Source: Escherichia phage UE-S5a
Sequence record: PP175015.1
Strand: one strand, 5' to 3'
Length of the DNA: 64,000 nucleotides
Below, piece after piece: positions 38,532 to 38,608 of this stretch (positions are counted from its first letter, which is position 1; each line of letters starts with the position of its first letter). A model generated the notes under the pieces. That model was not told the DNA's origin. It saw only the letters and a program-made list of their open reading frames with translations, and made no database searches. A program made the position numbers and the translations under genes.

Positions 38532-38608
38532 GGGTGTCCACTACTGGATTTGAACCAGTGACTTTCCGATTATTAGTCGGTTGCTTTCCCCGTCTAAGCT
38601 AAGCGGAC
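38532..38608 (-). tRNA. tRNA gene (hand-folded cloverleaf; nominal anticodon AAU, needs confirmation)
   Basis: Acceptor GTCCGCT/AGTGGAC (one G-U), D-arm GCTT/AAGC, T-arm ACTGG-TTCAAAT-CCAGT, anticodon loop CUAAUAA with U33. Confidence 0.55.

Follow-up and report, generated by a model that had tools for sequence, protein, structure and literature searches.

A conserved tRNA-Ile gene with an AAU anticodon in N4-like Escherichia phages and its probable origin from a lysidine-type tRNA-Ile2

Introduction

Unmodified A34 tRNAs are almost absent from bacteria, and their decoding has been measured with engineered tRNAs only. In Mollicutes, there are tRNAs that decode with an unmodified A34. In E. 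coli, AUU is read only via the G:U wobble of tRNA-Ile1(GAU), while AUA is read by tRNA-Ile2 (ileX/ileY, with ileZ as a counterpart in Stx phages), whose CAU anticodon has a C34 converted to lysidine by TilS. TilS-less bacteria such as Mycoplasma mobile have a tRNA-Ile(UAU) (PMC3575796).

The genomic anticodon AAU is found in eukaryotic cytosolic tRNA-Ile, which is edited to IAU by ADAT2/ADAT3. In E. coli, TadA edits tRNA-Arg2(ACG) to ICG, and all the TadA-dependent sites are UACG within a tRNA-Arg2-like stem-loop (PMC13170351). Schmitt et al. (PMC11066159) introduced 15 anticodons beginning with A34 into a tRNA that had the loop of tRNA-Arg2 at all other positions, and inosine was found only with ACG, AUG, and AAG. 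With AAU, no editing occurred in E. coli, and the reassignment by this tRNA was 4.5% at AUU, 0.43% at AUC, 0.27% at AUG, and below detection at AUA.

A tRNA with an AAU anticodon was noticed in a preliminary description of the window, that is, the whole stretch of 64,000 nucleotides of Escherichia phage UE-S5a (PP175015.1) analyzed here. It was proposed to be either an Ile-type tRNA needing A-to-I editing or a mimic. Over 5 kb around the tRNA, the identity is 100% with PP301342.1, the record of Escherichia phage UE-M3 (an N4-like Gamaleyavirus of the Schitoviridae), whose annotation has a tRNA-Ile at the locus, an adjoining tRNA-OTHER, and a tRNA-Cys further upstream. The UE-M3 paper lists the gene as tRNA-Ile-AAT. 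The SP5M orthologue is labelled 'tRNA-Ile-AAT' and the Bp4 copy 'tRNA-lle(aat)', and Bp4 also has a 'tRNA-Cys(aca)'. Thus, the tRNA-Ile(AAU) gene as an object is already known from GenBank and the UE-M3 paper. As for the A34 of these phages, no discussion was found in the literature apart from that bare listing.

Results

The tRNA-Ile(AAU) gene lies at 38535..38608 on the minus strand and is 74 nt in length from G1 to the discriminator A73, which agrees with the PP301342.1 annotation. ARAGORN found two genes in the window, both on the minus strand: a tRNA-Ile with the anticodon (aat) at 38531-38609 and a 'tRNA-???' at 38615-38690. The Rfam RF00005 model matched 38535-38608(-) over its whole length (positions 1-71) with 63.0 bits against a gathering score of 29 (E 2.7e-11), and the cloverleaf is the minimum-free-energy fold. 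In the RNA, the acceptor strand GUCCGCU is followed by UA, the D arm (GCUU AGACGGGGA AAGC), A, the anticodon arm (ACCGA CUAAUAA UCGGA), AAGUC, the T arm (ACUGG UUCAAAU CCAGU), the second acceptor strand AGUGGAC, and A73. The anticodon A34-A35-U36 (38572..38574) sits within the 7-nt loop CUAAUAA (38570-38576). The tertiary-contact nucleotides U8, A14, G18G19, and G15:C48 and the T-loop UUCAAAU are all present. CCA is not encoded; the bases after A73 are CCC on the RNA strand (38532-38534). A strong intrinsic terminator, consisting of a 13-bp stem followed by UUUUUAUUU, lies at 38260..38291 on the minus strand, some 245 nt past the 3′ end of the tRNA. The equivalent site is an annotated terminator in PhAPEC5 and PhAPEC7, and it is the probable end of the tRNA transcription unit.

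The window and PP301342.1 differ in their numbering. At approximately 1520-1667, the window has 148 bp absent from PP301342.1 and flanked by a 20-bp direct repeat, CAGGATATTATCCAATGTAT, which is either a duplication/deletion polymorphism or an assembly difference. Downstream of this insertion, the tRNA region included, the window coordinate equals the PP301342.1 coordinate plus 148.

Could the cloverleaf be a product of chance, or could the loop be misregistered and the true anticodon be a common one? No support for this was found; the sole irregularity is the A27xA43 mismatch at the top of the anticodon stem. The preliminary description had reported this mismatch together with a clean fold, the loop CUAAUAA, and AAU at positions 34-36, and all of these were reproduced by ARAGORN, Rfam, and the minimum-free-energy fold. 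In relatives, too, 27:43 is not a Watson-Crick pair: ileX has G:U there, Avpx2 has U:C, and the Akira type has A:C. A different register with a common anticodon, which the preliminary description had named as its refutation, was ruled out, since the two independent tools concur on AAU and the conservation and covariation of the stems agree with the AAU cloverleaf. The isotype prediction suggested there returned tRNA-Ile. Thus, the probability of a chance or misregistered fold is negligible.

The tRNA was found at 90% identity or more in 39 phage records. In the related phage loci sampled, the anticodon is AAT in 14 of 14, and the gene identity is 92-100%. This recurrence with AAT is far beyond chance. 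Among the eight distinct sequences, 20 of the 21 cloverleaf pairs are always paired, 95% of the stem cells are paired, and none of the pairs has been broken. Compensatory double changes occurred at 2:71, where U-A became C-G, and at 29:41, where C-G became U-A. The pair 5:68 is either G:U or A-U, and A27xA43 alone is never paired. The stems have thus been maintained in evolution. Pairwise diversity is 0.10-0.55 in the sequences directly flanking the gene and 0.044 within it. The 21-base anticodon arm block AAGCAACCGACUAAUAAUCGG is unchanged in 13 of the 14 loci. The invariant AAU, the compensatory stem changes, and the conserved island together indicate that the gene is under selection. The gene is nevertheless dispensable, being absent (G7C, EC1-UPM, and PGN829.1) or disrupted in some relatives. 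In Bas96 (L015, 1406-1490), an annotated 85-nt 'tRNA-Val' without an ARAGORN call has the acceptor and T arms of tRNA-Ile(AAU), a differing D arm, and a long unrelated stretch replacing the center. It has the appearance of a tRNA-Ile(AAU) copy that was recombined or disrupted.

A tRNA-like gene lies at 38618..38690 on the minus strand, 9 nt upstream of tRNA-Ile(AAU). It is the 'tRNA-OTHER/Undet' of GenBank and the 'tRNA-???' of ARAGORN, with an anticodon given as (ac). Its acceptor, D, and T arms fold normally, and its anticodon arm has a 5-bp stem and a 6-nt loop AAACCA with no U33. The Rfam match (40.7 bits) skips the anticodon arm. About half of the relatives have this gene, which is 96-100% conserved in 7 loci and shows a compensatory change of G6-C67 to A6-U67 in IME11. 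It is unable to decode normally and could be a mimic or a relic. As to the mimic that the preliminary description had offered for tRNA-Ile(AAU) itself, no positive evidence was found, the tertiary contacts being present and the stem pairing being kept by compensatory changes; the label would better suit this adjoining gene.

Three other elements were observed around the two genes. A conserved non-coding block at 38718..38808 on the minus strand lies upstream of both tRNA genes. With a diversity of 0.006-0.02 in 12 Gamaleyavirus loci, it is the most conserved non-coding part of the region. Its 38-nt core TTAACGCAATAATTATGTAGGGGTATGTAAGG (38732-38769) has 84% identity to the stretch immediately preceding the tRNA genes in Sf11, an unrelated siphovirus. 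Judging from these sequences, the block may be a candidate promoter or processing signal, perhaps shared by a mobile tRNA cassette. A tRNA-like relic at 39315-39380 on the minus strand (UCCGGUG...UCUGG-UUCGAGU-CCAGA-CGCCGGA-A-CCA) lacks an anticodon arm but has a T-arm, an acceptor that is paired, and an encoded CCA. This relic falls within UEM3_030, an annotated ORF of 68 aa without a Pfam match. In the gp49 region, an ORF at 37085-37585 on the minus strand, hypothetical in UE-M3, has a Tad2-like (Thoeris anti-defence 2) domain (PF11195, E 2.8e-24).

Is tRNA-Ile(AAU) itself a non-decoding gene? It might be a copy of tRNA-Ile2 that is in decay or has taken on another role, that is charged poorly owing to A34, and that persists as a neutral leftover, as a decoy shaped like a tRNA, or as a source of fragments. 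The locus resembles a tRNA graveyard: other Schitoviridae (Moo19, Gutmeister, and Kaypoctavirus) have 4-8 intact ordinary tRNAs at the same locus, while UE-M3 has the tRNA-like gene with the 6-nt loop and further relics. The absence of the gene from several Gamaleyaviruses, the poor performance of A34 as an IleRS determinant in yeast, and the minority status of the A34 form, a single-base variant, in the Akira-like group (see below) would also fit. However, AAU is fixed in Gamaleyavirus among genomes that differ elsewhere in the gene. The compensated stems, the tertiary-contact nucleotides, the preserved anticodon arm block, and a conservation far above that of the immediate flanks are against decay, and no host nuclease targeting tRNA-Ile was identified. 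I therefore consider a non-decoding gene rather unlikely.

The origin of tRNA-Ile(AAU) was assessed by sequence comparison. Its identity is 73% to E. coli ileX (CAU, lysidine-type tRNA-Ile2), 59% to ileV (GAU), and 65% to a manually entered sequence of elongator tRNA-Met. The nearest matches outside Gamaleyavirus are CAU tRNAs, namely those of Aeromonas phages (79-81%) and the Stx-phage ileZ (77%). The anticodon arm CGACU-N-AUAAUCG and the weak 27:43 pair are common to tRNA-Ile(AAU) and this CAU group. These similarities indicate that tRNA-Ile(AAU) descends from a lysidine-type tRNA-Ile2 (CAU) by a C34 to A34 change. Given the anticodon arm and the overall similarity, an origin from the GAU-type tRNA-Ile of N4-like phages (Gutmeister and Moo19) is less likely than one from the CAU type. 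A host-gene origin was ruled out, since the 5,426 E. coli genomes searched have no copy above 78% identity; by this measure, the tRNA is phage-specific.

The anticodon-arm pattern was then scanned in IMG/VR. Nucleotide 34 was C in 64 of the loci found, A in 8, and U in 1. A T-arm/acceptor pattern yielded only 4 IMG/VR loci, fewer than the GenBank phage records and the anticodon-arm patterns. One tRNA body, termed Akira-like and found on siphovirus contigs of roughly 46-48 kb, has CAU in 13 loci (e.g., L121 and L074 (Salmonella phage Akira)), AAU in 4 (L113, L115, L051, and L084), and UAU in 1 (L174). For two of the AAU copies, nucleotide 34 is the sole difference from the CAU form. The Akira-type CAU form is a 'tRNA-Met' in GenBank, yet it has the Ile-type pairs C4-G69, U12-A23, and C29-G41. 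The A34 forms of Gamaleyavirus and of the Akira-like group indicate that the C34 to A34 change is recurrent, having occurred at least twice, and that it was fixed in Gamaleyavirus.

Is A34 edited? In place of the TadA motif U33-A34-C35-G36, the loop of tRNA-Ile(AAU) has UAAU, and thus positions 35 and 36 both differ. The loop context C32 U33 ... A37 A38 of the AAU tRNA that was unedited in E. coli (PMC11066159) is that of the phage tRNA. No [HC]xE...[PS]CxxC motif of CDA-fold deaminases was found in any six-frame ORF of at least 50 aa of the phage genome, and the phage 'dCTP deaminase' has a DCD/dUTPase fold according to Pfam. A phage-encoded tRNA deaminase was therefore ruled out. If the host TadA or an unrecognized phage enzyme did convert A34 to I34, the resulting tRNA-Ile(IAU) would read AUU, AUC, and rare AUA like eukaryotic tRNA-Ile, replacing the lysidine-dependent AUA reader. 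Such editing would fit C32, U33, A34, A37, and A38, which the loop has in common with E. coli tRNA-Arg2, as well as the descent from an AUA-reading tRNA-Ile2 lineage. Moreover, AUA makes up 12% of the phage Ile codons and up to 33% in one tailspike, more than in highly expressed host genes, and I34 would also improve the recognition by IleRS. However, since the motif is UAAU and not UACG, the AAU test tRNA with an identical loop context had no inosine and no detectable AUA reading, and the phage has no CDA-fold deaminase, editing is unlikely by analogy, and I regard an IAU tRNA as very improbable. Thus, of the proposal of an Ile-type tRNA needing editing, the Ile type is supported by the identity elements and by ileX as the closest E. 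coli tRNA, and the need for editing is not supported.

Bacterial IleRS reads N34 with a different domain than yeast IleRS does. Of the bacterial IleRS identity set (PMC9976931), tRNA-Ile(AAU) has all of A73, C4-G69, U12-A23, C29-G41, A35, U36, A37, and A38; one relative (L005) has U29-A41 in place of C29-G41. Position 34 of the set is G or a lysidine-modified C, while it is A in 14 of 14 loci. The D-loop residues of the E. coli Ile set (G16, U20, and U21) are not matched either, the D-loop AGACGGGGA having no U at 20 or 21. An A34 transcript is charged 16-fold worse than the I34 form by yeast IleRS (PMC11685878). Given this result and the role of position 34 as a determinant, E. coli IleRS may charge the phage tRNA poorly as well. 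Charging is the weakest link of the explanation by an unmodified A34.

The codon demand was examined in the 84 annotated phage genes. AUU accounts for 60% of the Ile codons and AUC for 28%, AUA being the remaining share given above. The AUU share is 65% in late genes and reaches 79% in the portal, 96% in one structural protein, and 69% in the virion RNA polymerase. With 34 per 1000, AUU is among the commonest phage codons. In an E. coli 30-gene set (27 ribosomal proteins plus rpoA, tufA, and fusA), AUU/AUC/AUA is 27/73/0, and in 35 other E. coli genes it is 51/40/9. The comparison of late genes with the host that the preliminary description had suggested thus gives 65% AUU against 27% in the 30-gene set. 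The U-ending bias of the phage is general; the U fraction of AUY is 0.68 and unexceptional among the 16 NNY boxes. Because of this general preference, the codon usage is consistent with an AUU-reading tRNA but not diagnostic of it.

An unannotated tmRNA-like gene was found at 39445-39740 on the minus strand. It has an ssrA-like 5′ block, a tag frame, hairpins, and a 3′ T-arm. The tag frame at 39651-39616 (GCA AAC GAU GAU GUU GUU CUG AUG GCA GCC UAA UAA) corresponds to ANDDVVLMAA and two stop codons. The sequence before this frame, GAUAGUUUUCGUAAGCGAUUAUGCGG, is similar to the 5′ part of ssrA in E. coli. The Rfam matches in this region stay below threshold (RF04321 scores 32.7 bits, the gathering score being 47). 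A 371-nt query extending over the tag and the tRNA-like part gave partial matches in 528 phage records. The families concerned are unrelated (N4-like, Sf11/Akira-like, P1-like RCS47, Ackermannviridae, and others), and the matches covering the tag itself come from several of those families. An RNA gene is annotated at none of the matching sites. In RCS47 and Sf11, the two examined, the tmRNA-like element adjoins tRNA genes and is co-oriented with them. With a pattern fixing the AND and LMA codons of the tag, 81 IMG/VR loci were collected, of which 65 encode ANDDVVLMAA without any deviation. At least 10 synonymous nucleotide versions preserve the peptide, which argues for translation of the frame. 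The element was found in only 2 of 185,579 bacterial species genomes, where the tag scan otherwise gave mostly chance matches. No paper mentioning the tag ANDDVVLMAA was found in the literature.

With its thresholds lowered to 95%, ARAGORN reports a tmRNA of 389-443 nt in two siphovirus loci, having a 5′ UGUGGCA..., a T-arm, and CGCCACA-A-CC. The 3:70 pair of this siphovirus element is U-A, not the G:U needed by AlaRS. A script search for acceptor pairing gave a consistent tRNA-like domain in only 3 of the 81 loci. For the window, GGGCUAU at 39790 was considered as the 5′ acceptor strand (pairing with ACAGUCC, with G3:U70) and was rejected, as the relatives have AUCCUAU.

The 'tRNA-Cys-ACA' of GenBank (39447-39526, minus strand) has neither an ARAGORN call nor an Rfam match at threshold. 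Read by eye, its anticodon stem is paired at 3 of 5 positions, and four bases, not two, separate the acceptor and D stems. The tag frame lies about 90 nt upstream of it, and the segment by itself has matches of about 90% in T4-like phages of Klebsiella, Raoultella, and Yersinia. It is probably not a tRNA; it looks like part of the tmRNA-like gene, its T-arm and 3′ strand resembling the 3′ tRNA-like domain. In one IMG/VR locus with a tmRNA-like element (L039), a six-tRNA array includes a tRNA with the anticodon CUA ('Pyl' in ARAGORN) about 1.5 kb upstream of the element, possibly an amber-suppressor tRNA.

Discussion

The explanation that I favor, with slightly more confidence than doubt, is that tRNA-Ile(AAU) is a functional phage elongator tRNA-Ile derived from tRNA-Ile2 by the C34 to A34 change, whose wobble A34 stays unmodified in E. 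coli and reads AUU by Watson-Crick pairing. Expression, charging, and an unmodified A34 in infected cells are what I infer here. The gene would share its direction of transcription with the middle (replication) genes, and its transcript would end at the terminator at 38260-38291. Host RNases would trim the transcript, and since CCA is not encoded, the host CCA-adding enzyme would be needed to finish the 3′ end. After charging by the host IleRS, the A34:U pair on the ribosome would restrict reading almost exclusively to AUU, and AUA would not be read. The phage, which favors AUU, would gain additional AUU-decoding capacity in a host that favors AUC in highly expressed genes. In addition, the change would remove the dependence on the host TilS and any charging by MetRS.

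It is also possible, and I suggest it only tentatively, that nucleotide 34 is an evolutionary switch. Phages would repeatedly turn the lysidine-dependent tRNA-Ile2(CAU) into TilS-independent A34 or U34 forms. This would either shift the tRNA from AUA to AUU or leave it reading AUA. The tRNA would also escape a modification enzyme of the host, or else a host factor recognizing the CAU/lysidine loop. The A34 form would then be a naturally selected, unmodified-A34 decoder in E. coli.

These phages offer a natural test case: one coliphage clade has a fixed AAU tRNA-Ile, and a second clade is C/A/U-polymorphic at position 34 on an otherwise identical body. Does E. coli IleRS accept A34? Is A34 left unedited? 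Does an AUU-rich phage benefit from a Watson-Crick reader of AUU? These questions become testable in E. coli. For annotators, 'tRNA-Ile-AAT' should not be taken as an inosine tRNA by analogy with eukaryotes.

Among the known systems, tRNA-Ile2 is the closest in sequence, having the same anticodon arm, the weak 27:43 pair, C4-G69, and A73, and the Stx-phage ileZ is phage-borne as tRNA-Ile(AAU) is. In contrast to tRNA-Ile2, tRNA-Ile(AAU) has A34 instead of C34, and thus TilS cannot act on it, MetRS cannot mischarge it, and its expected codon is AUU, not AUA. Without the C34 of a CAU anticodon as a TilS substrate, it is related to tRNA-Ile2 by descent only. The tRNA-Ile(UAU) of Mycoplasma mobile likewise avoids the lysidine dependence via a change of nucleotide 34, and its phage parallel is the UAU variant of the Akira-like body. 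While UAU retains the reading of AUA, the AAU of the phage tRNA gives it up. The eukaryotic cytosolic tRNA-Ile has the same genomic anticodon and the same amino acid as the phage tRNA. However, the eukaryotic A34 deaminase is a sequence-tolerant heterodimer, E. coli has only the UACG-restricted TadA, and the body of the phage tRNA is of the bacterial/phage type. E. coli tRNA-Arg2(ACG) has, like the phage tRNA, A34 amid C32, U33, A37, and A38, while its positions 35-36 are CG, not AU, so that the TadA motif is found in tRNA-Arg2 and not in the phage tRNA. Finally, the phage tRNA is expected to behave like the decoders with an unmodified A34, namely the engineered AAU tRNA (PMC11066159) and such tRNAs of Mollicutes: A34 would stay unedited, and the U-ending codon would be preferred to the C-ending one by about 10:1. 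These precedents are engineered or result from genome reduction, whereas the phage tRNA is a natural gene set against the full tRNA set of its host.
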